Shown piece by piece: positions 2,751-56,310 of a stretch of DNA of 64,000 nt. Location of the stretch: assembly GCA_037142515.1 (NCBI GenBank), contig JBAXAM010000003.1, positions 9,484 to 73,483 on the forward strand. The letters are read 5' to 3'. Under the pieces are notes generated by a model. That model was given only the letters and a program-made list of their open reading frames with translations. It was not told the origin of the DNA and made no database searches. A program made the translations under genes and the position numbers. Position 1 is the first letter of the stretch. The number at the start of each line of letters is the position of its first letter. The DNA is from a bacterium (GTDB taxonomy: Bacteria; Pseudomonadota; Gammaproteobacteria; UBA9339).

Positions 2751-3965
2751 TATAAAAATAGGAGTACAAACAATGGCAGAAAAAGAAAAATTTGATCGAA
2801 CCAAGCCGCATATAAATATCGGTACTATAGGGCATGTAGATCATGGTAAAACAACGCTAACAGCAGCGATGACGATGGTACTGGCTGCAAAATTTGGTGG
2901 TGAAGTAAAGAAATTCGACGAAATTGACAATGCCCCAGAAGAAAAAGAAAGAGGCATAACAATAGCAACTTCGCATGTTGAATATCAAACAGCGAAATTC
3001 CATGTTGCTCACGTAGATTGCCCAGGACATGCTGATTATGTAAAAAACATGATTACTGGAGCAGCACAGATGGATGGAGCTGTTTTGGTTGTAAGTGCAG
3101 CTGATGGTCCAATGCCACAAACCAGAGAGCACATTCTTTTGGCCAGACAGGTTGGAGTGCCAAAAATTATTGTATATTTAAATAAAGCTGATATGGTGGA
3201 CGATCCTGAGTTATTGCAGCTGGTTGAGATGGAGATTAGAGATTTATTGAATAAATATGAATTTCCAGGAGATATAACGCCGATTGTTGTTGGTTCTGCC
3301 TTAAAAGCGCTTGAAGGAGATAAAAGCGAATTGGGAGAGCCATCGATATTGAAATTGGCTCAAACGATAGATGAGTATTTTGTAATACCAGAGCGTCCAA
3401 AAAACAAACCGTTTTTGATGCCAATAGAAGATGTATTTTCTATATCAGGAAGAGGCACGGTAGTAACTGGAAGAATTGAAAGAGGTATAGTTAAGTCTGG
3501 AGAAGAAGTAGAGATAGTTGGGATTCGTCCTACACAAAAGACTATATGTACCGGTGTTGAGATGTTTAGAAAGATTTTGGACCAAGGAGAAGCTGGAGAT
3601 AATGTTGGAGTGTTATTGCGTGGCACTAAGAAAGAAGATGTCGAAAGAGGTCAGGTATTAGCGCATCCAGGAACGATAACTCCACATACTAAGTTTGAAG
3701 CTGAAGTATATGTACTTTCGAAAGAAGAAGGTGGAAGACACACAGCGTTTTTCAAAGGATATCGTCCACAGTTTTATTTTAGAACTACTGACGTAACTGG
3801 AGCAGTGGAATTACCATCTGGTGTTGAGATGGTGATGCCCGGAGATAATATTAAGATAGTAGTAGCCTTAATAGTACCGGTTGCTATGGAAGACGGGGTA
3901 AGATTTGCAATAAGAGAGGGCGGCCGAACAGTTGGCGCTGGGGTTGTAACTAAGATTATTGAATA
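2751..3965 (+). repeat. tuf repeat copy 1 (about 1215 bp, identical to 18843..20057)
   Basis: The proteins are identical. The three antisense shadow ORFs are also identical at a constant offset of 16092 nt, which requires nucleotide identity over those spans. Identity starts 22 nt upstream of the ATG (tataaaaataggagtacaaaca) and ends inside the stop codon (TAA vs TAG). Confidence 0.9.
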
Positions 3966-3966
3966 A
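2773..3966 (+). CDS. tufB: elongation factor Tu (copy at the tRNA-tufB-secE position)
   Basis: This 397-aa ORF carries [18 protein letters not shown] and NKADMV. It follows the Tyr/Gly/Thr tRNA cluster as in the enterobacterial thrU-tyrU-glyT-thrT-tufB operon. Confidence 0.98.
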
Positions 3967-18842: not shown

Positions 18843-20057
18843 TATAAAAATAGGAGTACAAACAATGGCAGAAAAAGAAAAATTTGATCGAACCAAGCCG
18901 CATATAAATATCGGTACTATAGGGCATGTAGATCATGGTAAAACAACGCTAACAGCAGCGATGACGATGGTACTGGCTGCAAAATTTGGTGGTGAAGTAA
19001 AGAAATTCGACGAAATTGACAATGCCCCAGAAGAAAAAGAAAGAGGCATAACAATAGCAACTTCGCATGTTGAATATCAAACAGCGAAATTCCATGTTGC
19101 TCACGTAGATTGCCCAGGACATGCTGATTATGTAAAAAACATGATTACTGGAGCAGCACAGATGGATGGAGCTGTTTTGGTTGTAAGTGCAGCTGATGGT
19201 CCAATGCCACAAACCAGAGAGCACATTCTTTTGGCCAGACAGGTTGGAGTGCCAAAAATTATTGTATATTTAAATAAAGCTGATATGGTGGACGATCCTG
19301 AGTTATTGCAGCTGGTTGAGATGGAGATTAGAGATTTATTGAATAAATATGAATTTCCAGGAGATATAACGCCGATTGTTGTTGGTTCTGCCTTAAAAGC
19401 GCTTGAAGGAGATAAAAGCGAATTGGGAGAGCCATCGATATTGAAATTGGCTCAAACGATAGATGAGTATTTTGTAATACCAGAGCGTCCAAAAAACAAA
19501 CCGTTTTTGATGCCAATAGAAGATGTATTTTCTATATCAGGAAGAGGCACGGTAGTAACTGGAAGAATTGAAAGAGGTATAGTTAAGTCTGGAGAAGAAG
19601 TAGAGATAGTTGGGATTCGTCCTACACAAAAGACTATATGTACCGGTGTTGAGATGTTTAGAAAGATTTTGGACCAAGGAGAAGCTGGAGATAATGTTGG
19701 AGTGTTATTGCGTGGCACTAAGAAAGAAGATGTCGAAAGAGGTCAGGTATTAGCGCATCCAGGAACGATAACTCCACATACTAAGTTTGAAGCTGAAGTA
19801 TATGTACTTTCGAAAGAAGAAGGTGGAAGACACACAGCGTTTTTCAAAGGATATCGTCCACAGTTTTATTTTAGAACTACTGACGTAACTGGAGCAGTGG
19901 AATTACCATCTGGTGTTGAGATGGTGATGCCCGGAGATAATATTAAGATAGTAGTAGCCTTAATAGTACCGGTTGCTATGGAAGACGGGGTAAGATTTGC
20001 AATAAGAGAGGGCGGCCGAACAGTTGGCGCTGGGGTTGTAACTAAGATTATTGAATA
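18843..20057 (+). repeat. tuf repeat copy 2 (identical to 2751..3965)
   Basis: See copy 1. The offset between the copies is 16092 nt. Confidence 0.9.
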
Positions 20058-20058
20058 G
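18865..20058 (+). CDS. tufA: elongation factor Tu (str-operon copy)
   Basis: The 397-aa product is identical to that of the 2773-3966 copy. It occupies the canonical fusA-tufA position. Confidence 0.98.
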
Positions 20059-36395: not shown

Positions 36396-39300
36396 ATGGA
36401 ACAAGATACGGCAAAAAAAGCAGATGAGCAAATAACGCCGATACAAGTCGGTATGTCGCCGCCCGAGTCTAAAAAAGGTCAAAAACCACCATCTATACTT
36501 ACCATTGACAAGGCTTATAATATATTGCTGAGTTCCAGATATCCAGTTAGTGACAATAGTGCAATTGATGAGAATGATGTTGATGAGAAGCGTGTCTCGA
36601 CAGGGAAAATTAATTGCATGATGGAAACGTTGCGGTGTAAGCCTTATCCTAATTGTGAAGCAGTTAAAAAGTGTCCTCTTGATAAATTAGAAAAGGATAA
36701 AGAACGCCTTTTGAGGGAAAGGCTTGATTACGTAGTAAATATGAGTAGCGGTATGTTGTTTCAGGCTATTCCTGAAATAGATTATGGGAAGTCGGATGAC
36801 GCAAGTAAAAAGATTAAAGAGAGTATTGAAAAAGGCATACCAACTTTCGAGATTTTTTTAAAAGAAGCAGGAATAGATATTAACGAAGATGGTAAATATG
36901 CAAATGCTAAAAAACAGCTTGAAGAATTCCATAAAAAATATGATGAAATGCGTGAAAATCTAATCGAACGGAATGTTAAGTTGTACCTTAATGGTGCAAC
37001 TAGAGGAGCCGTGATAGAAGAAGAGGAGGTTTTAGCGGAGAAAATTGCCGTTGAAGGGGAAAGAAAATATAGAGAAAGATTCGAGGCAATGGGAGACGAA
37101 AAAGATTTAAGAGAGTTACAAAATATGCATAAAGGCATGGATGATGCCACTTTTATGGGTCAATTGGCTAAGTTTAATCCGAAGACATCGTCATACAGAA
37201 CTATTGATGACCTGTTAGAGGGCGAAACACAAAAAGTCCCTAATTCTAATGGATTGTATGTTAGGTGTGGCAGTGATGGTGAAAAAATTTTTATCCTTAA
37301 AGAGCCTAATAGGGAAAATACCCTGAAGGTTATTGAAGCAAAAAAAAATAAAGAACAAATTAATTGGACTGGTGTTTCTGAAACTGACTATGCTAGACAA
37401 AGTGAAATACTGACGCTGTGCTTAGCAGCGGGGAAAAAATGTACTATTAATGGAAAAAAACTTCCATTATCAGAAACAATGCCATCAGGAGAGCCAGAAA
37501 ACTATACTCAGTGGGTTAAAAATATTATTGAGTTATATGGGTCGGATGAGAAAAAGCGTGCTGAGCTTTTGAAACAGTTGGGTCGTGTTCTCGACGAGAA
37601 AGGACCTGATGAAAAAGAAAAATTTTTGTTTCATCTGAGCGAGAACGGTTCAGTGGAAGAGCGCAAGGTGGCTGAGGAAGCTATGAGAGGAACTGGGGTT
37701 ATAGTTCGAAATAGAATTGTTGATGAAAGTCATTGGTATGATAATACTGCTCCGGGAAAGGAAAAGAAAACGAGAACGTATAGATACGACGAAGAAACGC
37801 CGTGTTTAAAAGATGTTGTTGTTAAAAAATTAGAAGCGGCTGAAAAAAAATTACTTGAAGCAATGGGAACAGAACCAAGAGATGAACCGTATATAGCTCA
37901 ATGTAAGGCCGAAGTTGATAATCGTAGTAAAGCTCTTATGAAGCTCATTGAAAGCAATACGGAAGAAGAGAACGTTAAAGCGAGATCAATACTGGGGTTT
38001 AACGAGAGGTATATTGATCGGTTAGACGATATTGCAAAAAAAATAGCAAAAGCAGAAGAGCGGCAAGGCACGATGGTGAAAAAAGCGGAAGAGGAGAAGG
38101 CCGGTGCATTAGAAAAAGTAAGAAGATTGTCGTTGCCAGAAGAAAAAAGAAATCTAATTGAGTATATTGAAAAGCTAGAAAAATTAGAAGAGCTAGAAAA
38201 ACTAGAAAACCCGGACAAAGCAGATGAAATTAAAAAGTTGAAAGAGGAGATGGCTAAGTTAGAAAATGTTGTAGTGGAAGGAAAAAATACTGTGAATGGT
38301 TTGAAAGTATTAAATGAAGAAATTTATAAGTGCGCAGACGATTTGAAAGGCTTAGAAAAGGATAATAAGGAGTTATCAAAAAAACTAGAAGCACCCGACA
38401 AAGCAGATAAAGAAAAGGTAAATAATTTTTTAGAAAAGCTAAAAGAACGAGACAAGGCGAGAAAAAGCGACGAACCTGATGAAGAAAAAATAAAGGAACT
38501 GAAAGGGGCGCTTGGCGTCTTACAAGAGAGTTTAGGAAAAGATGTGGATTCTTTACTAGAGGTAGATTCGGAAATTGCGACGAAGCGTAAAGATTTGAAA
38601 AGAAGTAAAAAATATAAAAGCGAGTTGTTGGTAACTGCAAAAAAAATGCTTGAGAAAAAAGTAGATGTAGATGATGCTCCGGTGCTGTCGTTAAAAGAAT
38701 ATCTTAAAAAACGAAAAGAAGCGGCAGATGCTACTGATATTTTAGAAAAAACGAGATTGGAAAATGAGCTGAAAGTAGCGAAAGACAAAGTTGTTGATGG
38801 TGAAAAAAAAGATGTAAATGATTTAGTAGAAAAAGATGAGGCCGTTGAAAAAGCAGTTAAGGATGTGGCAGAAAAGAAAAAAGCTCAAGATGGAGCATTA
38901 AAAGAAGTAAAAACGCTTAGTAATACAGTCTCAGTAAATGAAAAACCATTGTTAGATAGTTATATTAAAAGCCACGAAGAATTGGAAAAAGAAAATAAAA
39001 AAGGTGATAAGTGCGATAAGGCTGTAGTAAAAAAACTGGAAGAAAATCTGGCGTTAGCGGAAACAGGACTTCAAAGCAAGGAGTCTCAGCTAGCTTTAAC
39101 AAATTTAAAAAAACACGATCAAGAACTTAAGACGGCAAATGATAGCAAGAAAGAAGCAGAAGCGGAGCGCGATGAGTCCCTAAAAAAAGTAACAGAGCCG
39201 GTAATACAGATGCAGTTAAGGGGGTATCTTAAAAAACGAAAAGAGCTAGAAGGTGAAAATAAAAAAGGCGGTAAGCGTGATAACAAGAAAGTTGAAGAAC

Positions 39301-41558
39301 TAAAAAATGAGATGGCTGCTTTAGTGGGGGAAATAAAGTCACTAGGGGATAATAATGCAGTCAAAGCTATAGAAGCTTTAGAAAAATCAGAAGAAGGTAA
39401 TCCGGAAGAAGAAAAAGTAAAAAATTCGATAATAGAATCGAGAAATGAGTTTGATGCTGCGGAGGTAGGTCTTTTATGGTCCATTGAGAACAATCCAGAG
39501 CAATTAAAAGAGCTTGTGAGTAAATTGAGCAAGCATCCAAAGGGGTTCAAAGATATTGTCAAGAATGTTAAAAATGATCAAAGACAAGCTTTTCAAACAG
39601 CTTGTGTTAACGCATTAGACGAGCTTGTTGATGAAGAAGAACAGCGCATACAAGCTGGTGCCATAGCAGAAACGCTAGCAAGTTTTCCTGTTGATCCTGC
39701 GAACCCAGAGCGATCGAGCCCAGAGCAATTAAAGGAGCTCTGGGCTAATATTAAAAAAGCTAAAAATGAAAAAGTTGTTGATCTATGTGCCTCTTGTTTG
39801 AAGCCAGAGCAAAAAGCTATTTTATTAGCAGATAAAGCTGAGTTATTACTTAGGGTTTCTCCAGAAAAGATAGGAGAAGTAAGAAGTGAGGTTGAAGTAA
39901 ATAAAAAATCTTGTGAAGCAGTTAAGCAGCCGCGTTCTGATAAGTTTGAAGCATATTTAAATAAACGAAAGGAGTTATTGCAAAAAGGTTACTTTGCGGA
40001 AGAAGATGTAACGCTCCTTAATGGTTTAGCGGTAGATATTAAAAAATCGGCAGAATTAAAAGTTGCAAAAGGCATGCAGATGGCAGATGAAAAATTGCAG
40101 AAAATAGAAGGCGATTTAAATGATGCTAAGAAGGATATTGGTTTGATTATTGGAGCAACTAAAAAACCAGAAGAATTACGCGAACTTTGGGTTAGGCTTA
40201 GTAGTAATAATACACTAGAAGAAAAGCTCAGTGTATATAGAAAACATTTTAGTGAAGAGCAAAAAAATGGTTTGCAAAAGCACTATACTGATGTGTTAAA
40301 AGAGACTAATGAGAAATTAGGAAAAGCGACAACTAATGTTGAAAAAGATAGTCTAAATAAAGAACTTGTTAAAATACGAAAGGAACAATTGAGTTTTATT
40401 GGAACAGATCCAAGACGATTATTAGATACAAGTAAGGTGCAAGAAGCTACAGATGCAGCAGCAAGAGGGACTAAGGCAATAAGTGACTGGGCAGGGCGAG
40501 GAAATAAATTACCAGGGGAAGGCACATTGCTTTTTATTTATCTTGATAATCGAAAGAAACTAAATGACAAAATAAAGGAACTACGAAAGGCAGGTACGAG
40601 CATTGCTAATAACGAGGAAGTTAATAAATTGAGACAAAACGTCGCCGACGCAGTGAAAAATATAGAGGTAGAAGTAGAGAAAAAAGAAAACAAGAAGGAA
40701 AATATAAAAGAAGAAGCAGGTCTGGTAGCGTTGTTAGAAGCCGAAGATAAAAAGATAATGGAAGTAGAGCAGGAGGAAATCGATGGACTCGCTAAAGATT
40801 TATCTGAAGAGCAAGAAGGCGCTTTATTAAAATACTGTGGGGATACGATAAGCGACAAATGCGTTCCGCAATTTGAAAAAGGAGTTAAGGAGGCTGAAGC
40901 TGCTTTAGCTGAAAAGTTAAAGGTAGTAGAGGGAATTAAGGGTGTTAGGTCTGTTGTGGAATATGGGGGCGAGCGAAAGAAGTTGGTGGAAAAACGAAAG
41001 GAACTAGAGGGATTTAAAAGGGCTTTAAAAACATTGGATGAAGTGTTAAAAAAGAACCCAAACGATGCTGGTCTTGCTGAAGAGAAAAAAGATATAGAAG
41101 AGAAGATAAAAAAAGCCACTAAAGAAATTGAAGGCTTACAAGTAAAGGTCACCGATGCGACGAAAAAAGTGCCTGACAAAGAAGGAAGAAGGGCTGTAGA
41201 TGGCGTAGAAGAAGCGGATAAGGAGTTGCAAAAACAACGAGAAGGTTTAGAAAAAGCTAGAAATGACAGAGATGCGGGATTGCTTGCAGCTATAGAGAAA
41301 ATATATGGATTTCTTGTTGCTAATGGAGCTAAAAGACCAGGGATTACAATTACAAATCTGACAAAAGAAATGCAAAACCCTCAAACTCGATTAGAAGTAT
41401 TAAATGGACTACCAGAACCTTATGGGACGGCGGTAAAAAAAGAAAAAGCTTATATTGATTTAGTAAAAGAAGTTGAAAAACTAAAGCAACCTCAAAAAGA
41501 ACAAGAGCCCGGAAAACAAAATATCAATAGATCTGTGATGAGGTCCAACAACAGCTGA
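36396..41558 (+). CDS. giant Lys/Glu-rich repetitive coiled-coil protein (1720 aa), candidate secreted effector
   Basis: An uninterrupted 5.2-kb ORF with GGATAGGAAAC upstream of the ATG. The protein is dominated by K/E/L heptad-like stretches (for example EKLEKLEELEKLENPDKADEIKKLKEEMAKLE). I recognised no enzymatic motif. Confidence 0.85.
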   Translation: MEQDTAKKADEQITPIQVGMSPPESKKGQKPPSILTIDKAYNILLSSRYPVSDNSAIDENDVDEKRVSTGKINCMMETLRCKPYPNCEAVKKCPLDKLEKDKERLLRERLDYVVNMSSGMLFQAIPEIDYGKSDDASKKIKESIEKGIPTFEIFLKEAGIDINEDGKYANAKKQLEEFHKKYDEMRENLIERNVKLYLNGATRGAVIEEEEVLAEKIAVEGERKYRERFEAMGDEKDLRELQNMHKGMDDATFMGQLAKFNPKTSSYRTIDDLLEGETQKVPNSNGLYVRCGSDGEKIFILKEPNRENTLKVIEAKKNKEQINWTGVSETDYARQSEILTLCLAAGKKCTINGKKLPLSETMPSGEPENYTQWVKNIIELYGSDEKKRAELLKQLGRVLDEKGPDEKEKFLFHLSENGSVEERKVAEEAMRGTGVIVRNRIVDESHWYDNTAPGKEKKTRTYRYDEETPCLKDVVVKKLEAAEKKLLEAMGTEPRDEPYIAQCKAEVDNRSKALMKLIESNTEEENVKARSILGFNERYIDRLDDIAKKIAKAEERQGTMVKKAEEEKAGALEKVRRLSLPEEKRNLIEYIEKLEKLEELEKLENPDKADEIKKLKEEMAKLENVVVEGKNTVNGLKVLNEEIYKCADDLKGLEKDNKELSKKLEAPDKADKEKVNNFLEKLKERDKARKSDEPDEEKIKELKGALGVLQESLGKDVDSLLEVDSEIATKRKDLKRSKKYKSELLVTAKKMLEKKVDVDDAPVLSLKEYLKKRKEAADATDILEKTRLENELKVAKDKVVDGEKKDVNDLVEKDEAVEKAVKDVAEKKKAQDGALKEVKTLSNTVSVNEKPLLDSYIKSHEELEKENKKGDKCDKAVVKKLEENLALAETGLQSKESQLALTNLKKHDQELKTANDSKKEAEAERDESLKKVTEPVIQMQLRGYLKKRKELEGENKKGGKRDNKKVEELKNEMAALVGEIKSLGDNNAVKAIEALEKSEEGNPEEEKVKNSIIESRNEFDAAEVGLLWSIENNPEQLKELVSKLSKHPKGFKDIVKNVKNDQRQAFQTACVNALDELVDEEEQRIQAGAIAETLASFPVDPANPERSSPEQLKELWANIKKAKNEKVVDLCASCLKPEQKAILLADKAELLLRVSPEKIGEVRSEVEVNKKSCEAVKQPRSDKFEAYLNKRKELLQKGYFAEEDVTLLNGLAVDIKKSAELKVAKGMQMADEKLQKIEGDLNDAKKDIGLIIGATKKPEELRELWVRLSSNNTLEEKLSVYRKHFSEEQKNGLQKHYTDVLKETNEKLGKATTNVEKDSLNKELVKIRKEQLSFIGTDPRRLLDTSKVQEATDAAARGTKAISDWAGRGNKLPGEGTLLFIYLDNRKKLNDKIKELRKAGTSIANNEEVNKLRQNVADAVKNIEVEVEKKENKKENIKEEAGLVALLEAEDKKIMEVEQEEIDGLAKDLSEEQEGALLKYCGDTISDKCVPQFEKGVKEAEAALAEKLKVVEGIKGVRSVVEYGGERKKLVEKRKELEGFKRALKTLDEVLKKNPNDAGLAEEKKDIEEKIKKATKEIEGLQVKVTDATKKVPDKEGRRAVDGVEEADKELQKQREGLEKARNDRDAGLLAAIEKIYGFLVANGAKRPGITITNLTKEMQNPQTRLEVLNGLPEPYGTAVKKEKAYIDLVKEVEKLKQPQKEQEPGKQNINRSVMRSNNS

Positions 41559-42038: not shown

Positions 42039-42320
42039 TTATTTTTTTAAGTTGCGATAAAAGTTTTCATGTGTCCCAACATCTAGCAAGATAATTTCTT
42101 TTTTTGATTCGTAATACTTATATGCAATCAAAGTAAGCTGGCCTATCATATGAAATTTATAGACTTTCACACCTAAGCAATCTCCTTTTTTATTTTCTCC
42201 AATGTTGGGATTGACACGTATTTTTTCGATACTTTTTTCTAATGAGATTGCTTGATTGTTGTGTAGCCTTTTTGCCGAACGCTTGAAAGCGTTAGTTTTG
42301 TTTATTTGCACTAAACTCAC
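42039..42320 (-). CDS. type II toxin, RelE/ParE superfamily
   Basis: A 93-aa ORF reading ...FKRSAKRL..NQAISLEKSIEKIRVNPNIGENKKGDCLGVKVYKF.MIGQLTLIAYKY...KEIILLDVGTHENFYRNLK. This is the typical RelE/ParE fold pattern, and the ORF overlaps the upstream antitoxin gene by 29 nt. Confidence 0.75.
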   Translation of the reverse strand: MSLVQINKTNAFKRSAKRLHNNQAISLEKSIEKIRVNPNIGENKKGDCLGVKVYKFHMIGQLTLIAYKYYESKKEIILLDVGTHENFYRNLKK

Positions 42321-42534
42321 CCTTTGTATATGGTTCTACTCTTCCAGCGTCGACATCTGCCAACCCCTCAAAAATTTTTATAATAAATTCAACTGGCAAA
42401 TCTGGATTGTCTATGGCGGCGCGTCCAATTTTTGCCCAATAAGCTATTTGATTAGGAACAGAGCGATATTGCGCTTGCGCTATTGGCTTTGCTGCGTTAT
42501 AAAGCTCTTCGTTAATTTTTATTGCAATGCTCAT
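42292..42534 (-). CDS. ParD-like type II antitoxin
   Basis: An 80-aa ORF reading MSIAIKINEELYNAAKPIAQAQYRSVPNQIAYWAKIGRAAIDNPDLPVEFI. This resembles the ParD_like antitoxin family as I remember it, and it sits immediately 5' of the toxin. Confidence 0.7.
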   Translation of the reverse strand: MSIAIKINEELYNAAKPIAQAQYRSVPNQIAYWAKIGRAAIDNPDLPVEFIIKIFEGLADVDAGRVEPYTKGEFSANKQN

Positions 42535-42622: not shown

Positions 42623-43819
42623 ATGAACATAATGCCAGAGAGAAAAATTTTTAAAGTATCGCAAATTAATGCTGCAGCTAGAGCAATTCTAGAAGCCAAT
42701 TTTGATCACGTGTGGATTGAAGGAGAAATATCAAATCTGGCCGAACCAAGCTCTGGTCATATCTATTTCTCACTTAAAGATGAATCAGCTCAAGTTCGTG
42801 CGGCAATGTTTCGTAGTAGAAAATTGGCTCTTAAGTTTCAGCCAAAAGATGGAGTGCACGTAATTGTTAGCGCACAAATTAGCCTCTATGAGCCAAGAGG
42901 TGACTATCAGCTAATTATTGAACATATGGAACCTGCTGGCGTCGGAGTTTTGCATGCTAAATTTTTGCAGCTGAAGGCAAAGCTCGAAGCTGAAAAGCTT
43001 TTCGATGTTAAATACAAAAAGCCTTTGCCAAAGTTACCGCGATGTATTGGTGTGATCACTTCGCCAACCGGTGCTGCAATTCGCGATATTTTGAGTGTGC
43101 TCAAACGCCGTTTTGCAGGCGTTACTGTTATTATTTATCCCACGCAGGTACAGGGCAGTGAAGCAGCTGCGCAAATTGTCTTAGCATTGCAGACTGCAAA
43201 CATGCGTCATGAGAGTGATGTATTAATTTTAGCGCGTGGCGGCGGGTCTCTGGAAGACTTGTGGTCGTTTAATGAAGAAGTTGTTGCGCGTGCGATTTTT
43301 GCGAGCTCTATTCCGGTTGTTAGTGCGGTTGGACACGAAACTGATTTTACGATTGCTGATTTTGTTGCTGATATGCGAGCACCGACACCATCAGCTGCGG
43401 CGGAGCTTGCGGTTCCGGATGCTGTGGAATGGTTGGCGGCTTTAGTAAATTTTAAGCAAAGATTAATTAATTTAATACAATATAAATTACAACAAACGAA
43501 ATTATTATTAGAAAGTTTAAAAAATCGTTTGCGCCCCCCGCAGTATTATTTATCCCAGCAAGCGCAACGTTTGGATGAAGTGGAGCGCCGCCTTCATATG
43601 GCAATGCAGCATCAACTAACTTATTGGCAGCATCGACTAGTCAAAGCGAGCGCTGCACTTAATTTAGTTAGTCCGCTCGCAACACTAGTACGTGGTTATG
43701 CAATTGTCAGCAAGGATAGCAGAGTAGTACAAACAACCAAAGACGTTATTGTCGGTGATGCGATACAAACAAAATTGGCGGATGGAACACTTTGTTGTTT
43801 GGTAGAAAAAATAATCTAG
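42623..43819 (+). CDS. xseA: exodeoxyribonuclease VII large subunit
   Basis: ...VSQINAAARAILEANFDHVWIEGEISNLAEPSSGHIYFSLKD..AQVRAAMFR...IGVITSPTGAAIRDIL...RGGGSLEDLWSFNEE. Confidence 0.95.
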   Translation: MNIMPERKIFKVSQINAAARAILEANFDHVWIEGEISNLAEPSSGHIYFSLKDESAQVRAAMFRSRKLALKFQPKDGVHVIVSAQISLYEPRGDYQLIIEHMEPAGVGVLHAKFLQLKAKLEAEKLFDVKYKKPLPKLPRCIGVITSPTGAAIRDILSVLKRRFAGVTVIIYPTQVQGSEAAAQIVLALQTANMRHESDVLILARGGGSLEDLWSFNEEVVARAIFASSIPVVSAVGHETDFTIADFVADMRAPTPSAAAELAVPDAVEWLAALVNFKQRLINLIQYKLQQTKLLLESLKNRLRPPQYYLSQQAQRLDEVERRLHMAMQHQLTYWQHRLVKASAALNLVSPLATLVRGYAIVSKDSRVVQTTKDVIVGDAIQTKLADGTLCCLVEKII

Positions 43820-44298
43820 CGAGTTTCTGATAGCTTAATGATATTTTGGTTGCTCGAACCGCGGAAGGACAGATTGAGATCGTTTTTGTTTACGTCATAT
43901 GGTCCATCAATCAAAATGTCAGTTGATTGCAAAAATTTTTCAATTGCTGGATTTTTTGTTGCCATAGAGAGTAACTCAGCGTAGTAATATCCACTGTAGG
44001 TTATAATATTTAAATTATTTTTATTTTGTTTTATTAACTCAGCTAATTTTGCACAGGCAGCTGCTTGTGCGAACGGTTCTCCTCCAGAAAATGTTACGCC
44101 ATCGATTAATTTTGTTTCGTTGATCGAGTCCAATAGCTTGGTAATGGAAATATCATAACCACCAGCAAAATCTTGAGTGTCTGGATTGTGGCAGCCGACG
44201 CAGCGATGCGGGCACCCTTGGGTAAAAATTACATAGCGTAGTCCCGGTCCATCGACGACGCTTTCTTTAATTATTCCTGCTATGCGAAGTTGAGTCAT
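43816..44298 (-). CDS. nrdG: anaerobic ribonucleoside-triphosphate reductase activating protein
   Basis: ...ESVVDGPGLRYVIFTQGCPHRCVGCHNP (radical-SAM CxxxCxxC) and GVTFSGGEP. I used ATG 44298, 4 nt after the nrdD stop codon. Confidence 0.92.
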   Translation of the reverse strand: MTQLRIAGIIKESVVDGPGLRYVIFTQGCPHRCVGCHNPDTQDFAGGYDISITKLLDSINETKLIDGVTFSGGEPFAQAAACAKLAELIKQNKNNLNIITYSGYYYAELLSMATKNPAIEKFLQSTDILIDGPYDVNKNDLNLSFRGSSNQNIIKLSETR

Positions 44299-44302
44299 AC
44301 AG

Positions 44303-53050: not shown

Positions 53051-53116
53051 AATGTTAAGTGAAACTCGAATTATAATTCGTAAAATAGGCATCTTATTAA
53101 TTTATAAGAAAAAATC

Positions 53117-53504
53117 ATGGAAAAAAATTTTAAATATTCAAAACCCTCATTGGGCAAATGTATCGTATAAGCAAATCTCTGACCGATCTGTGCTTGATCG
53201 GCTAATAAAAAAACTGTCGCTTAAAGAGATACAAGTGCTCTTGGGTGTAAGACGATCAGGAAAATCCACCCTATTTAAACTTTTGATCAATCATATTCTA
53301 AAGCAGGTAGATGGGAAAGAAATTTTTTATATTAATTTGGATGATCCGTTTTTTTCCGAAGTTTGGGATGATGCGAAAAAATTATATTCCGTAGTAGAAA
53401 CAGCTGAGAAAATAACCGGAACTAATAACCAAGAAGAAAAAATTAGCGAAAAAATAGCAGTTATCCCTTTTTGGAAGTGGTGGTTTTTAATTGACACCAT
53501 GTAG
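53117..53504 (+). pseudogene. remnant of an AAA_14/DUF4143-type ATPase gene
   Basis: The reading frame gives ..ILNIQNPHWANV...VLLGVRRSGKSTLFKLL...IFYINLDDP (N-terminal P-loop part). It then jumps directly to a family-typical C-terminal ...KIAVIPFWKWWFL, so roughly 270 aa of a ~400-aa protein are missing. The only nearby ATG (53117, in atggaaaaaaatttt) is out of frame across an A-run. Confidence 0.6.
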
Positions 53505-54284: not shown

Positions 54285-55316
54285 ATGGTTATGTTATCAC
54301 AAAGTTATCCAACAAAATATTGGCACAAATTAGAAAATGATAGAGTCCAGTGTGACCTTTGTCCCCAATTTTGTAAATTAAACGAAGGACAGCGTGGTAT
54401 TTGCTATGTAAGAGTGCGGCAAAACGACCAAATTGTGCTTACTGCTTATGGGAGATCGAGTGGTTTTTGTGTTGATCCAATTGAAAAAAAACCGCTAAAC
54501 CATTTTTTGTCCGGTTCAGCTGTTTATTCCTTTGGTACCGTTGGTTGTAATTTATTATGTAAGTTTTGTCAAAATTGGGATATAAGTAAAGTGCGTGAAG
54601 ATGATGGTTTGGCGGCCATAGCTACGCCACAAAATATTGCCAAGATTGCTAAGAAGCAGCAATGCCAAAGCGTTGCTTTTACTTATAATGAGCCAATTAT
54701 TTTTATGGAGTATGCCATCGATGTTGCCAAAGAATGTCACAAGCTTGGCATTAAGACCGTGGCGGTGACCAATGGTTATATTTGCGATGAGCCGCGCAAA
54801 GAATTTTTTTCTCACATGGATGCTGTTCGTGTTGATCTTAAGAGCTTTACCGATAAATTTTATAAGAATATAACTAGTTCACGTTTGCAGCCAGTGCTGG
54901 ATACTCTTGTTTACTTAAAAAAGCATACAAATATTTGGTTTGAAGTTATTTGTCTTTTAATTTCTGGTGAGAATGATTCTGTCGCTGAAATTGAAGAATT
55001 AACTAAGTGGCTCGTAGAAAACTTGGGGGTAGATGTTCCTGTGCATTTCACCGCTTTTTACCCAGCATGGAAGATGCTTGATAAACCAGTAACGCCACTT
55101 GAGATTTTAATTCGCGCACGTGATATCGCTATGAAAAATGGAATGCGATATGCTTATACAGGCAATGTCTATCATCCCGAGGGCAGTAAAACTTTTTGCC
55201 ATAACTGTAAAAAATGCGTAATTGTCCGGGCTAGTTATACTATTGAGGAATATCACCTGAATGATACAGGGAATTGCAAGTTTTGTGGAGCTGAATGTGC
55301 CGGGGTCTTTATTTGA
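54285..55316 (+). CDS. amrS: AmmeMemoRadiSam system radical SAM enzyme
   Basis: The N-terminal Cys cluster reads VQCDLCPQFCKLNEGQRGICYVR, the radical-SAM motif reads GCNLLCKFCQNW, and the C-terminal cluster reads CHNCKKC...GNCKFCG. The gene is divergent from amrB. Confidence 0.88.
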   Translation: MVMLSQSYPTKYWHKLENDRVQCDLCPQFCKLNEGQRGICYVRVRQNDQIVLTAYGRSSGFCVDPIEKKPLNHFLSGSAVYSFGTVGCNLLCKFCQNWDISKVREDDGLAAIATPQNIAKIAKKQQCQSVAFTYNEPIIFMEYAIDVAKECHKLGIKTVAVTNGYICDEPRKEFFSHMDAVRVDLKSFTDKFYKNITSSRLQPVLDTLVYLKKHTNIWFEVICLLISGENDSVAEIEELTKWLVENLGVDVPVHFTAFYPAWKMLDKPVTPLEILIRARDIAMKNGMRYAYTGNVYHPEGSKTFCHNCKKCVIVRASYTIEEYHLNDTGNCKFCGAECAGVFI

Positions 55317-55560
55317 ATTTATTGTTGCTTGTCACATATATATTCAGGGCTCTCAAACAATCGTAAAACATATTAATAAAACCACCGCAGGAATAGTGGA
55401 TATCTTTGTGCAAATATCCATGCGCTTTCCATTGGTCGCAACATATTGCCCTGCAGAGATTAGCGTTCTTAACAGAAAAAGATAAAGATTTGCCGTCGCA
55501 TTTGCACGATTCAACGCCACCAGATACTAAACACATCTCCTGAATACTTAAAGGTCTCAT
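55309..55560 (-). CDS. Cys-rich small protein with double-glycine (GG) leader; candidate bacteriocin/RiPP-like precursor (83 aa)
   Basis: My translation is MRPLSIQEMCLVSGG/VESCKCDGKSLSFSVKNANLCRAICCDQWKAHGYLHKDIHYSCGGFINMFYDCLRALNIYVTSNNKFK. The leader matches L(-12)S(-11)xxE(-8)[LM](-7)xx[IV](-4)xG(-2)G(-1). GAGGTG lies 5 nt upstream of ATG 55560. The longer track start at 55593 lies upstream of the predicted TSS. Confidence 0.6.
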   Translation of the reverse strand: MRPLSIQEMCLVSGGVESCKCDGKSLSFSVKNANLCRAICCDQWKAHGYLHKDIHYSCGGFINMFYDCLRALNIYVTSNNKFK

Positions 55561-55596
55561 TGTCACCTCTGTCAGATGATTGATGTTGTACATGGC

Positions 55597-55625
55597 ATTC
55601 TATCTTACTGCTCTTTGCTTTTCAA
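55597..55625 (-). promoter_or_regulatory. sigma70-type promoter for the GG-leader peptide gene
   Basis: The reverse strand reads TTGAAA (55625-55620), a 17-nt spacer, then TAGAAT (55602-55597). The -10 hexamer overlaps the rph stop codon. The predicted TSS is near 55590, about 30 nt upstream of ATG 55560. Confidence 0.55.
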
Positions 55626-56310
55626 AAATTTGTTTAAGTCCGAGCTTTGCTAGATCAAGCAGGGCATTTAATTCGTGTTGATTGAAGGTACCATGTTCTG
55701 CTGTTCCTTGGATTTCGATAAAATTTCCATCTTCGGTCATAACAATATTCATGTCAGTACCAATATTACAATCTTCGTTATAGTCGAGGTCAAGTATTAG
55801 GCTGCCTTTGTAAAGACCGACTGAAACCGCTGCGACCAGTTGCCTGAGTGGGTTTTCTTTTAGTTTAAGTTTTTGTTGCAGATGGTTGAGCGCATCAACC
55901 AATGCAATACAACTGCCGGTTATAGCCGCGGTTCTAGTGCCGCCATCGGCTTGAAGTACGTCGCAGTCAATGGTGATTGTGTTTTCACCGATAAGTTTTA
56001 GATTGACTACAGATCGTAGCGAGCGGCCGATCAAGCGTTGAATTTCTAGGGTGCGCCCACCTTGTTTGCCACGTGCTGCTTCGCGGTCAGTACGGGTATG
56101 AGTAGAGCGTGGTAACATGCCATATTCTGCAGTTAGCCAGCCTTGGCCGCTACCCTTGAGAAATTTTGGTATGCCACTAATTATCGATGCAGTACACAAT
56201 ACTTTAGTATCGCCAAATTCTATTAATGCTGAGCCCTCGGCATGCTTAGTGTAGTTGCGTGTAATTTTGATGACTCGTAATTCGTTGAAAGCACGGTTGC
56301 TTGGGCGCAT
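55600..56310 (-). CDS. rph: ribonuclease PH
   Basis: [12 protein letters not shown]...[22 protein letters not shown]...[15 protein letters not shown]...[18 protein letters not shown]. Confidence 0.97.

Follow-up and report, generated by a model that had tools for sequence, protein, structure and literature searches.

A candidate double-glycine-signal pre-peptide in the lineage-specific rph-amrS spacer of an uncultured Coxiellaceae-like bacterium

Double-glycine peptides and the candidate frame

Class II microcins are made with a signal of 15-18 aa that ends in GG or GA and precedes a core of about 60-90 aa (5-10 kDa), and it is unusual among them for a toxin to have no immunity gene beside it (PMC10233263). 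The PCAT (C39 peptidase ABC transporter) and membrane fusion protein that serve them are mostly encoded in the same cluster. The core peptides of the known members share almost no similarity (PMC10233263), so that missing homologues are not unusual in this class. Class IIa microcins that combine a GG signal with disulfides, including multi-Cys, DsbAB-dependent ones, have been described and are reported to be pervasive in Gram-negatives (PMC12219008). The initial annotation of the locus considered here had supposed that an exported peptide of this kind was not yet described, and these reports supersede that view. Among Gram-positive bacteria, the consensus LSxxELxxIxGG is the one given for double-glycine class II bacteriocins and pheromones (Havarstein et al. 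1994, as cited in PMC10233263). Sactipeptides and ranthipeptides/SCIFF, which are Cys-rich RiPP precursors modified by radical SAM enzymes, offer a further comparison, as the locus likewise places a small Cys-rich ORF beside a radical SAM gene.

The window, that is the whole 64-kb stretch of DNA that was analysed, carries this ORF between rph and amrS, two neighbours whose identification was upheld by profile matches, as was the presence of Memo and AMMECR1 (Table 1). The full frame (55309..55593, minus strand) encodes 94 aa when read from its first ATG; the ATG at 55560 gives an 83-aa product, which begins with MRPLSIQEMCLVSGG. As the initial annotation had described, the 83-aa product has a 68-aa core with seven Cys (laid out as CKC, C, CC, C, C), and the stop codon of the ORF (55309-55311) lies against that of amrS (55314-55316) in an 8-nt overlap. 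An eighth Cys lies in the leader; the odd number in the core was counted against the reading of the ORF as a gene. The hexamer GAGGTG, reported earlier as lying 5 nt from the ATG, is indeed present, with the correction that the hexamer itself ends 3 nt before the ATG and only its GAGG core 5 nt before. A comparable Shine-Dalgarno sequence precedes 19 of the 46 trusted genes in the window. No such site was found for the upstream ATG at 55593, GAGG being correctly spaced for the second ATG only. A single-sequence AlphaFold2 model of the product was uninformative (pLDDT 51). A truncated AAA_14 ATPase fragment was also observed at the same locus, between amrA and amrB.

Table 1. Positions of the features discussed, numbered from the first nucleotide of the window.
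Feature	Position	Strand	Remark
amrS, AmmeMemoRadiSam radical SAM enzyme, convergent neighbour	54285..55316	+	TIGR04337, 556 bits
rph-amrS spacer, 283 nt, lineage-specific	55317..55599		comparison with closest relatives
rph (RNase PH), co-directional upstream neighbour	55600..56310	-	stop 39 nt before the ATG of the ORF
Candidate pre-peptide ORF, 83 codons and stop	55309..55560	-	from the Shine-Dalgarno-preceded ATG
Double-glycine signal MRPLSIQEMCLVSGG, 15 codons	55516..55560	-	likeness to the colicin V signal
Core, 68 codons	55312..55515	-	7 Cys, net charge about +4, without homologue
Shine-Dalgarno-like GAGGTG	55564..55569	-	GAGG core ends 5 nt before the ATG
Promoter-like TTGAAA-N17-TAGAAT	55597..55625	-	10/12 matches; its TAG is the rph stop codon
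9-bp A/U-rich hairpin within the ORF	55394..55417		loop holds the sister-strain insertion; local fold z-score -1.64
1-nt insertion in L081/L082	55408..55408		CAC AAA to CAC TAA, stop after His51

The candidate resembles the class IIa microcins (MccV/colicin V, MccL, MccN and the set of Parker et al. 2025, PMC12219008) in its Gly-Gly signal of 15 aa, inside the published range of 15-18 aa, in a pre-peptide shorter than 150 aa whose 68-aa core falls inside the 60-90 aa range and has no similarity to members, and in Cys residues able to form disulfides together with the lack of a Gly/Ser-rich siderophore-attachment tail. It differs from them in having no immunity gene beside it, in the lack of a PCAT or membrane fusion protein over about 74 kb, in a core that is not Gly/Ala-rich, and in its host, an uncultured Coxiellaceae-like bacterium in which the ORF is putative and is truncated in a sister strain. 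Classic class IIa microcins have 2-4 Cys, against seven in the candidate core. The Gram-positive double-glycine bacteriocins and pheromones are matched by L at -12, S at -11, E at -8, hydrophobic residues at -7 and -4, and GG at -2/-1; the present host is by contrast Gram-negative, so that export would also require a membrane fusion protein and TolC.

Rarity of the colicin V-like leader

A double-glycine signal of the C39/PCAT type had been recognised in this N-terminus from L-12, S-11, E-8, M-7 and V-4 relative to the GG. All of these residues are read directly from the sequence, and the N-terminus is a very good match, with signal and core sizes that fit class II microcins. Aligned residue for residue with the colicin V signal MRTLTLNELDSVSGG, itself verified in cvaC-annotated plasmids, the leader has 8/15 identical and 12/15 similar residues, for a BLOSUM62 sum of 38. 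Among 88,810 simulated Met starts, an identity of at least 8/15 to the colicin V leader occurred once and a sum of 38 was never reached (maximum, 33). For real starts, the runner-up among the 590 of the window has a sum of 13, and the 8,835 from other loci reach at most 24. An N-terminus of the LSxxELxxIxG[GAS] type is present once in the window, on the candidate ORF itself, and is absent from 697 kb of other loci; the simulation produced two in 300 windows, never with GG. Since simulated starts almost never match it, the resemblance is both real and rare, and a likeness of this degree would arise by chance about once in a few hundred windows, without yet asking for an intergenic position and a Shine-Dalgarno sequence. 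The leader fits Motif 1 of PMC12219008 as well; this motif is very permissive (11 spurious matches in about 700 kb), and the fit was set aside as unable to carry weight.

Searches with GG-leader profiles reached no family cut-off in Pfam or NCBIfam, the models Pfam Bacteriocin_IIc, Pfam MccV and the NCBIfam leader models giving no match to the peptide at E up to 10. In the corresponding control, colicin V passed its own family model only and fell below the cut-offs of the other leader models. As generic libraries miss even the colicin V leader, the test has little power and the silence of the libraries is uninformative. The initial annotation had recognised no homology, and this was borne out by protein, metagenome, plasmid, phage and profile searches. 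Against 1.84 billion representative proteins, phmmer found no genuine homologue; its four matches were rejected as artefacts because they came from repeated weak matches to repeat proteins, and one of them (P0125) is translated from a tandem DNA repeat of 174 nt lying between dcuC and infB. A word-index protein search with the peptide returned nothing, a tblastn scan of metagenomes matched only one contig, at 100% identity, no relative of the peptide turned up in plasmids, phages or viral contigs, and PDB, Pfam, NCBIfam, PHROGs and PADLOC gave no match to it. Neither the 83-aa nor the 94-aa product was found as an exact entry in a collection of about 15 billion proteins.

The partner genes expected of a double-glycine peptide were sought in the same way. 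No C39 exporter (PCAT), membrane fusion protein or immunity gene was present in the 64-kb window, where ORFs of at least 120 aa were scanned for PCAT, or in the 10 kb past its left end, which agrees with what had been noted earlier on transporter and immunity genes in the window and extends it to a total of about 74 kb. No immunity gene is adjacent to the ORF: beside rph and amrS there are only antisense or overlapping ORFs without family matches. The possibility that the frame is the remnant of a known gene in another frame was likewise rejected, these antisense and overlapping ORFs having no Pfam match.

On this evidence we tentatively favour, by a narrow margin, the interpretation that the ORF is a genuine gene for a double-glycine-signal peptide of the class II microcin type, or was one until lately. 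Such a gene would be an orphan, and probably a decaying one, because it has no adjacent immunity gene and no exporter over about 74 kb, and because only 51 codons of the frame are left in the sister strain. The gene may have arrived with the lineage-specific insertion, in one uncultured Coxiellaceae-like species whose rph/amrS junction is variable. Transcripts could reach it from rph, as the rph stop is 39 nt upstream and no terminator intervenes, or could start at a weak promoter in that place, and its translation would begin at the ATG at 55560, which a Shine-Dalgarno sequence precedes. A PCAT encoded elsewhere would then recognise MRPLSIQEMCLVSGG through its C39 peptidase domain and cut after the Gly-Gly, releasing a cationic core of 68 aa with 7 Cys. 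The ORF and the rarity of its signal are shown by the sequence, whereas translation, cleavage and export, like any activity of the peptide, are predictions.

A lineage-specific insertion and its truncated allele

The closest relatives, defined by an RNase PH 88-91% identical, show one of three arrangements at the rph/amrS junction: a spacer of 48-56 nt, an ankyrin gene, or rph and amrS directly overlapping. The spacer described here is about 230 nt longer than the 48-56 nt of these relatives and cannot be aligned with theirs. The ankyrin gene occupies the junction in L088 and L089, so that foreign DNA has demonstrably been taken up there. The ORF itself was found neither in L086-L089 nor in the contig carrying P0012; conservation in close relatives, by which the initial annotation would have judged the gene, is thus lacking. 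A sister strain (contigs L081 and L082), 99.8% identical over 8.2 kb, does carry the frame, in a form cut to 51 codons by a 1-nt insertion. Only two indel events separate the two strains in 8,205 aligned nt, the other being at 53449, in a pseudogene fragment; both fall in stretches without an intact gene. Besides the window, five independent assemblies or samples carry the intact allele.

These observations bear on the main rival to the tentatively favoured gene, namely that the frame arose by chance in a non-coding, lineage-specific spacer made of junk or remnant DNA, left over at a junction that varies, in a decaying genome of the intracellular type. The likeness to a GG signal would then be a coincidence brought up by the scanning of many windows, and the spacer would serve to separate, and perhaps weakly terminate, the rph and amrS transcripts. 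We consider this nearly as probable as the gene, the odds between the two being about even, and most of the evidence other than the leader indeed argues against a working gene. An unrelated spacer of 48-56 nt in the nearest relatives, a frame-breaking insertion tolerated in the sister strain at one of the only two indel sites in 8.2 kb (the other being the pseudogene fragment), the absence of a homologue at any sensitivity, and other debris at the locus, such as the AAA_14 fragment, all speak for a chance frame. The stop codon of the ORF lies in the conserved amrS flank, outside the inserted DNA, and the frame therefore ends only on reaching that flank.

The composition of the ORF points in the same direction. 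In codon score, synonymous usage and GC phase it cannot be told apart from the window's 99 out-of-frame ORFs. Its codon score of -0.08 per codon sits at the shadow-ORF mean (-0.11 +/- 0.17), while none of the 45 long genes falls below 0.098 and real small genes range over 0.15-0.67; on synonymous usage alone it ranks near the 4th percentile of gene chunks; and its GC1-GC3 is reversed, at -0.07 versus 0.22 +/- 0.09 in genes, a value as low being found in 0/333 gene chunks. Shadow ORFs as rich in Cys as the candidate make up 3% of those in the window. Gene callers rejected the ORF in every assembly (uncalled in 7/7).

Signals around the frame fit a chance origin as well. A TTGAAA-N17-TAGAAT element lies over the rph stop codon, as the initial annotation had placed it; its standing above chance was not upheld. 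Promoter-like sites number 5 in 1.7 kb versus 4.8 +/- 2.2 in shuffles, and the -35 hexamer consists of the conserved rph codons Phe-Glu-Lys, found also in relatives without the ORF. The earlier argument that the ORF has its own promoter, and hence is a real gene, loses its basis, since such matches occur at chance frequency and half of this one belongs to the conserved coding sequence of rph. At 55382-55425, weak terminator-like matches are grouped on both strands, again at the frequency seen in shuffles, and offer mid-ORF weak hairpins to both convergent transcripts; the fold of the A/U-rich hairpin listed in Table 1 is not significant.

Several features are nevertheless poorly accounted for by a chance frame. 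A colicin V-like leader, at about 1e-5 per start, an ORF that fills the whole spacer (an ATG-initiated ORF of at least 83 codons arises in 2% of spacer shuffles, p = 0.02), an intergenic position and a correctly spaced GAGG sequence are jointly rare, the rough product of these rates being of the order of 1e-5 to 1e-4 per window. The GC content of the spacer (0.385) is near the genome mean, unlike that of several other spacers, which are AT-rich. No structured RNA or repeat gives the spacer another purpose: a repeat or mobile element was rejected as no second copy was found within the window, and a structured RNA, riboswitch or terminator as no Rfam match appeared at E up to 1 and the whole-spacer fold z-score was -0.29. 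Spurious intergenic or shadow ORFs of AT-rich genomes resemble the candidate in composition, orphan status and tolerance of a frame-breaking indel; they do not normally combine a near-archetypal export signal with a Shine-Dalgarno sequence and full occupancy of a spacer. The locus offers, in this respect, a calibration case, in which a near-archetypal signal motif stands on an ORF judged non-coding by all other lines of evidence.

Less probable readings: a live exported peptide or an AmmeMemoRadiSam substrate

The strongest form of the double-glycine gene explanation, and a subset of it, is that the ORF encodes a live and functional exported peptide (a bacteriocin or a signal), with the exporter and any immunity gene elsewhere and the truncation as a loss in one strain. 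We regard this as unlikely. The leader, the Shine-Dalgarno sequence, the ORF statistics and the further occurrences of the intact allele speak for it; against it stand the non-genic composition, the lack of conservation, the odd number of Cys and the absence of partner genes within about 74 kb, a missing adjacent immunity gene being atypical (PMC10233263). It is similarly doubtful that an uncultured, probably host-associated Coxiellaceae-like bacterium expresses a new cationic 7-Cys peptide family and exports it through a PCAT encoded elsewhere, as a microcin-like toxin or signal that has no sequence relatives, came in very recently at a junction of housekeeping genes and is already polymorphic in the population, with intact and truncated forms. 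If real, such a peptide would add to the class II microcin-type peptides a core family without relatives, would extend the class to a Coxiellaceae-like lineage in which secreted interbacterial or host-directed peptides are little known, and would exemplify how such genes escape gene callers.

The suggestion of the initial annotation that the peptide is a substrate or dedicated partner of the neighbouring AmmeMemoRadiSam radical SAM system is highly improbable, and effectively refuted, because the ORF does not co-occur with amrS: it is absent both from the relatives and from the 80 listed amrS loci. What favours the link is adjacency alone, the 3' end of the ORF overlapping that of amrS by 8 nt, and a Cys-rich core. 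The ORF points towards amrS and is read in the same direction as rph. The closest relatives retain amrS, amrB and amrA and have in place of the ORF a junction of 48-56 nt, an ankyrin gene or an overlap. The 80 listed amrS loci, drawn from many phyla, served as a negative set for co-localisation (AmrS identity of 65% or less among the matches listed); tblastn of the peptide against them gave noise only, and a strict GG-leader ORF was found in 0 of the 80. The best tblastn match, in L054 (E = 0.012), was rejected as an out-of-frame stretch inside an rtcB-like gene. AmrS itself is PFL-activase-like, with Pfam matches to Radical_SAM and Fer4_12 only and no SPASM or RRE match. In radical-SAM RiPP pairs the maturase carries a SPASM/twitch domain and/or a RiPP recognition element (RRE), and precursor and maturase genes share one orientation in an operon. 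From sactipeptides and ranthipeptides/SCIFF the locus thus differs in an AmrS (TIGR04337) without SPASM/RRE match, in the convergence of the two genes and in a pairing of ORF and amrS that is kept in no relative. A peptide substrate for AmmeMemoRadiSam, a system whose substrate the initial annotation gave as unknown, would have been the more exciting claim, and it fails on the comparison with relatives; the three-gene system is indeed far more widespread than this ORF of a single species.

Leader and start signals of the frame between rph and amrS

The leader of the candidate ORF is striking and the observation was accurate, while its novel interpretation fails; what is left is an orphan, as yet unproven, whose class is already well described. 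The initial annotation gave correctly the coordinates and start of the frame, its 68-aa core with seven cysteines, and the 8-nt overlap of its stop with the end of amrS (see table). The core has a net charge of about +4, and an AlphaFold2 single-sequence model of the peptide was of low confidence (pLDDT 51). A Shine-Dalgarno-like site precedes only the second ATG (55560), as do sites of comparable kind 19 of 46 trusted genes; the GAGGTG reported there exists, but the 5-nt spacing holds for its GAGG core, whereas the full hexamer ends 3 nt before the ATG.

A pattern modelled on LSxxELxxIxG[GAS] was matched by this ORF alone among the 590 Met starts of the window, by not one of the 8,620 starts examined elsewhere (697 kb from other loci), and by two starts, neither with GG, in 300 simulated windows. 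The colicin V signal MRTLTLNELDSVSGG was used as an independent reference (the CvaC sequence used is 100% identical to cvaC-annotated plasmid genes). The first 15 residues of the ORF share 8 identities with it, a count that only 1 of 88,810 simulated starts reaches, and their BLOSUM62 sum is 38, which no simulated start attains (simulated maximum 33; next best in the window 13, best in other loci 24). Microcin Motif 1, as published (PMC12219008), is matched too, a fit that carries no weight because this permissive motif gave 11 spurious matches in about 700 kb. An ORF of 83 codons or more starting with ATG arose in 2% of dinucleotide shuffles of the spacer. Leader match, Shine-Dalgarno site, intergenic position and full spacer occupancy are jointly very unlikely by chance, at a rough estimate of 1e-5 to 1e-4 per window, which argues against a chance frame in junk DNA. 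The TTGAAA-17-TAGAAT match advanced as the ORF's own promoter is present, but such sites are as frequent as in shuffles (5 found versus 4.8 expected) and its -35 hexamer consists of conserved rph codons (F-E-K), also found in relatives without the ORF.

Positions of the features discussed (window coordinates unless a contig is named)
Feature	Position	Strand	Remarks
Candidate ORF	55309..55593	-	94 codons from first ATG
Shorter ORF form	ATG at 55560	-	83 codons; begins MRPLSIQEMCLVSGG
rph-amrS spacer	55317-55599		283 nt, between two convergent genes; holds the ORF
rph	55600..56310	-	
amrS	54285..55316	+	TIGR04337, 556 bits
Memo/amrB and AMMECR1/amrA			further left of amrS
P-loop ATPase fragment	52992-53504	+	truncated
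amrA-amrB spacer	53093-53486		
Microcompartment locus	1-2356 and L095 3870-11497		runs into the window's left end
NrdD and NrdG activase	43816-46342	-	anaerobic ribonucleotide reductase
Eukaryote-like SET-domain protein; large proteins of 1720, 443 and 475 aa	49894-51183; 36396-41558; 59761-61092; 61241-62668	+	
Two 397-aa ORFs	2773-3966; 18865-20058	+	
Small ORF pair	42039-42534	-	93/80 aa
Small ORF pair	46533-47035	+	56/111 aa
Ankyrin-repeat gene of relatives	L088 4759-5967; L089 1855-3063		402 aa
P0125	L092 3001-3447		also L093, L094

Composition, relatives and sister strains

Composition was in line with a chance frame. A codon model built from the window's 45 long ORFs gave the candidate -0.08 bits per codon, versus a mean of -0.11 +/- 0.17 for 99 out-of-frame shadow ORFs; training genes all scored at least 0.098 (mean 0.31 +/- 0.10) and recognisable small genes 0.15-0.67. 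This deficit is due in part to Cys codons, which are rare; scored on synonymous choice only (-0.03), the ORF still lies near the shadow mean and ranks at about the 4th percentile among gene chunks of 83 codons. GC by codon position was 0.33/0.38/0.41, versus 0.52/0.37/0.31 in genes, and the GC1-GC3 difference (-0.07) was below that of all 333 real-gene chunks (0.22 +/- 0.09), a value usual for shadow ORFs (-0.05 +/- 0.18), 3% of which equal the candidate's Cys richness. If a gene, the ORF is compositionally foreign.

Conservation in relatives, which the initial annotation had held to bear on the reality of the peptide, was not found: no search route gave a homologue, and the junction differs in the closest other species. 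The exact 83-aa and 94-aa products were absent from about 15 billion proteins, and every assembly carrying the locus lacks a gene call in the amrS-rph interval. A word-index search gave no homologue, and phmmer against 1.84 billion representatives none that was credible, its four matches being repeat-protein artefacts. One of these, P0125 (148 aa), is a called protein that translates a 174-nt DNA repeat, present in three tandem copies between dcuC and infB of an unrelated bacterium, and surfaced because one weak match was counted three times. Back-translated patterns and tblastn found only an identical 1.3-kb contig among metagenome contigs and no homologue among viral contigs; none was found in plasmids and phages (tblastn or blastn), nor in PDB, Pfam, NCBIfam, PHROGs and PADLOC, libraries that, in a control, likewise miss the leader of colicin V except in its own family.

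By its RpoB, the organism lies close to uncultured "Coxiellaceae bacterium" MAGs (82-84% identity), and RNase PH of the closest other species is 88-91% identical. In these relatives, rph and amrS are separated by 48-56 nt (L086, L087) or by an ankyrin-repeat gene (L088, L089), overlap (the P0012-carrying contig), or have entirely other neighbours (L090, L098). Homology ends at the rph stop and restarts exactly at the amrS stop, so the spacer, about 230 nt longer than in the closest relatives, is lineage-specific DNA at a junction that repeatedly gains or loses DNA. The ORF's stop codon lies outside this new DNA, within the conserved amrS flank. The spacer had no Rfam match, no significant fold and no second copy in the window.

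Five contigs from other samples were 100% identical across the ORF region. Contigs L081 and L082 match the window at 99.8-99.9% over 8.2 kb and 2.1 kb, and differ within 430 nt around the ORF solely by a 1-nt insertion (CAC AAA to CAC TAA) that ends the frame after His51; as both possibly derive from the same sample, this truncated allele counts as one observation. Across 8,205 aligned nt, L081 is separated from the window by 12 substitutions and by two indel events. The second indel (2 nt at 53449) falls in the truncated ATPase fragment (AAA_14 type) that sits between amrA and amrB, so both lie in stretches without an intact gene. This fragment, which covers only positions 3-49 of 129 of the Pfam AAA_14 profile and retains a Walker A motif (GKST), looks like pseudogene debris; in relatives (L086), unlike the window, amrB and amrA are adjacent.

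Partner genes and the status of the ORF

A C39 ABC transporter, whose presence the initial annotation proposed to check, was found neither among the scanned larger ORFs of the window nor in the 10 kb beyond its left end, where a microcompartment locus lies, and the same holds for a membrane fusion protein and a plausible immunity gene. Those larger ORFs encode housekeeping proteins, NrdD/NrdG, an MFS transporter, a SET-domain protein and several orphans.

Genuine peptides of the double-glycine kind occur commonly, evolve fast and often escape annotation (PMC12219008; PMC10233263). We tentatively suggest, as slightly short of an even call, that the ORF is a genuine gene of the class II microcin type, or was one until recently, and is now an orphan probably in decay; within this reading, a live and exported peptide seems unlikely. 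A chance frame in junk DNA is also a serious possibility, itself somewhat under even, in line with a composition unlike that of genes, the absence of any relatives, the truncated allele, the partner genes that are missing and a stop codon supplied by the amrS flank. The two readings stand near parity in a rough likelihood bookkeeping whose weights are judgement and not a calibrated model. The ORF resembles class IIa pre-microcins in its signal, its size and its cysteines; it cannot be filed among them, because no immunity gene adjoins it, any exporter is putative, and it did not prove to be a "real conserved gene" when examined for class II microcin membership. If real, it would add a new core family to a described class, and no new kind.

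The AmmeMemoRadiSam locus and other neighbours

The proposal that the peptide is an AmmeMemoRadiSam substrate is refuted by the criterion its own proponent had set, a lack of co-occurrence, since the ORF, convergent with amrS and downstream of rph, is missing from every relative keeping the three-gene system; tblastn of the peptide against 80 amrS loci from many phyla gave only noise, no strict GG-leader ORF occurs in them, and the architecture of AmrS is PFL-activase-like, with neither a SPASM nor an RRE domain match. The best tblastn match lay out of frame within an rtcB-like gene.

The microcompartment locus comprises BMC and EutN shell proteins, aldehyde dehydrogenase, an RnfC-like protein, DeoC, class II aldolase and triose-phosphate isomerase, with cytidine deaminase and a nucleoside phosphorylase just upstream. 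Together with NrdDG, it represents an anaerobic sugar-phosphate or nucleoside-type metabolism, unexpected in a Coxiellaceae-like genome. Proteins of 1720, 443 and 475 aa lack any Pfam family; with the SET-domain protein, the ankyrin genes of relatives and the RpoB placement, they suggest that the lineage is host-associated and effector-bearing. The two 397-aa ORFs share identical 20-nt upstream regions (TAAAAATAGGAGTACAAACA) and, from their position in the ribosomal-protein region, are presumably a duplicated tuf gene. The NrdDG region is flanked by two pairs of small ORFs, adjacent or overlapping, whose codon scores are gene-like; these pairs may be toxin-antitoxin-type modules.
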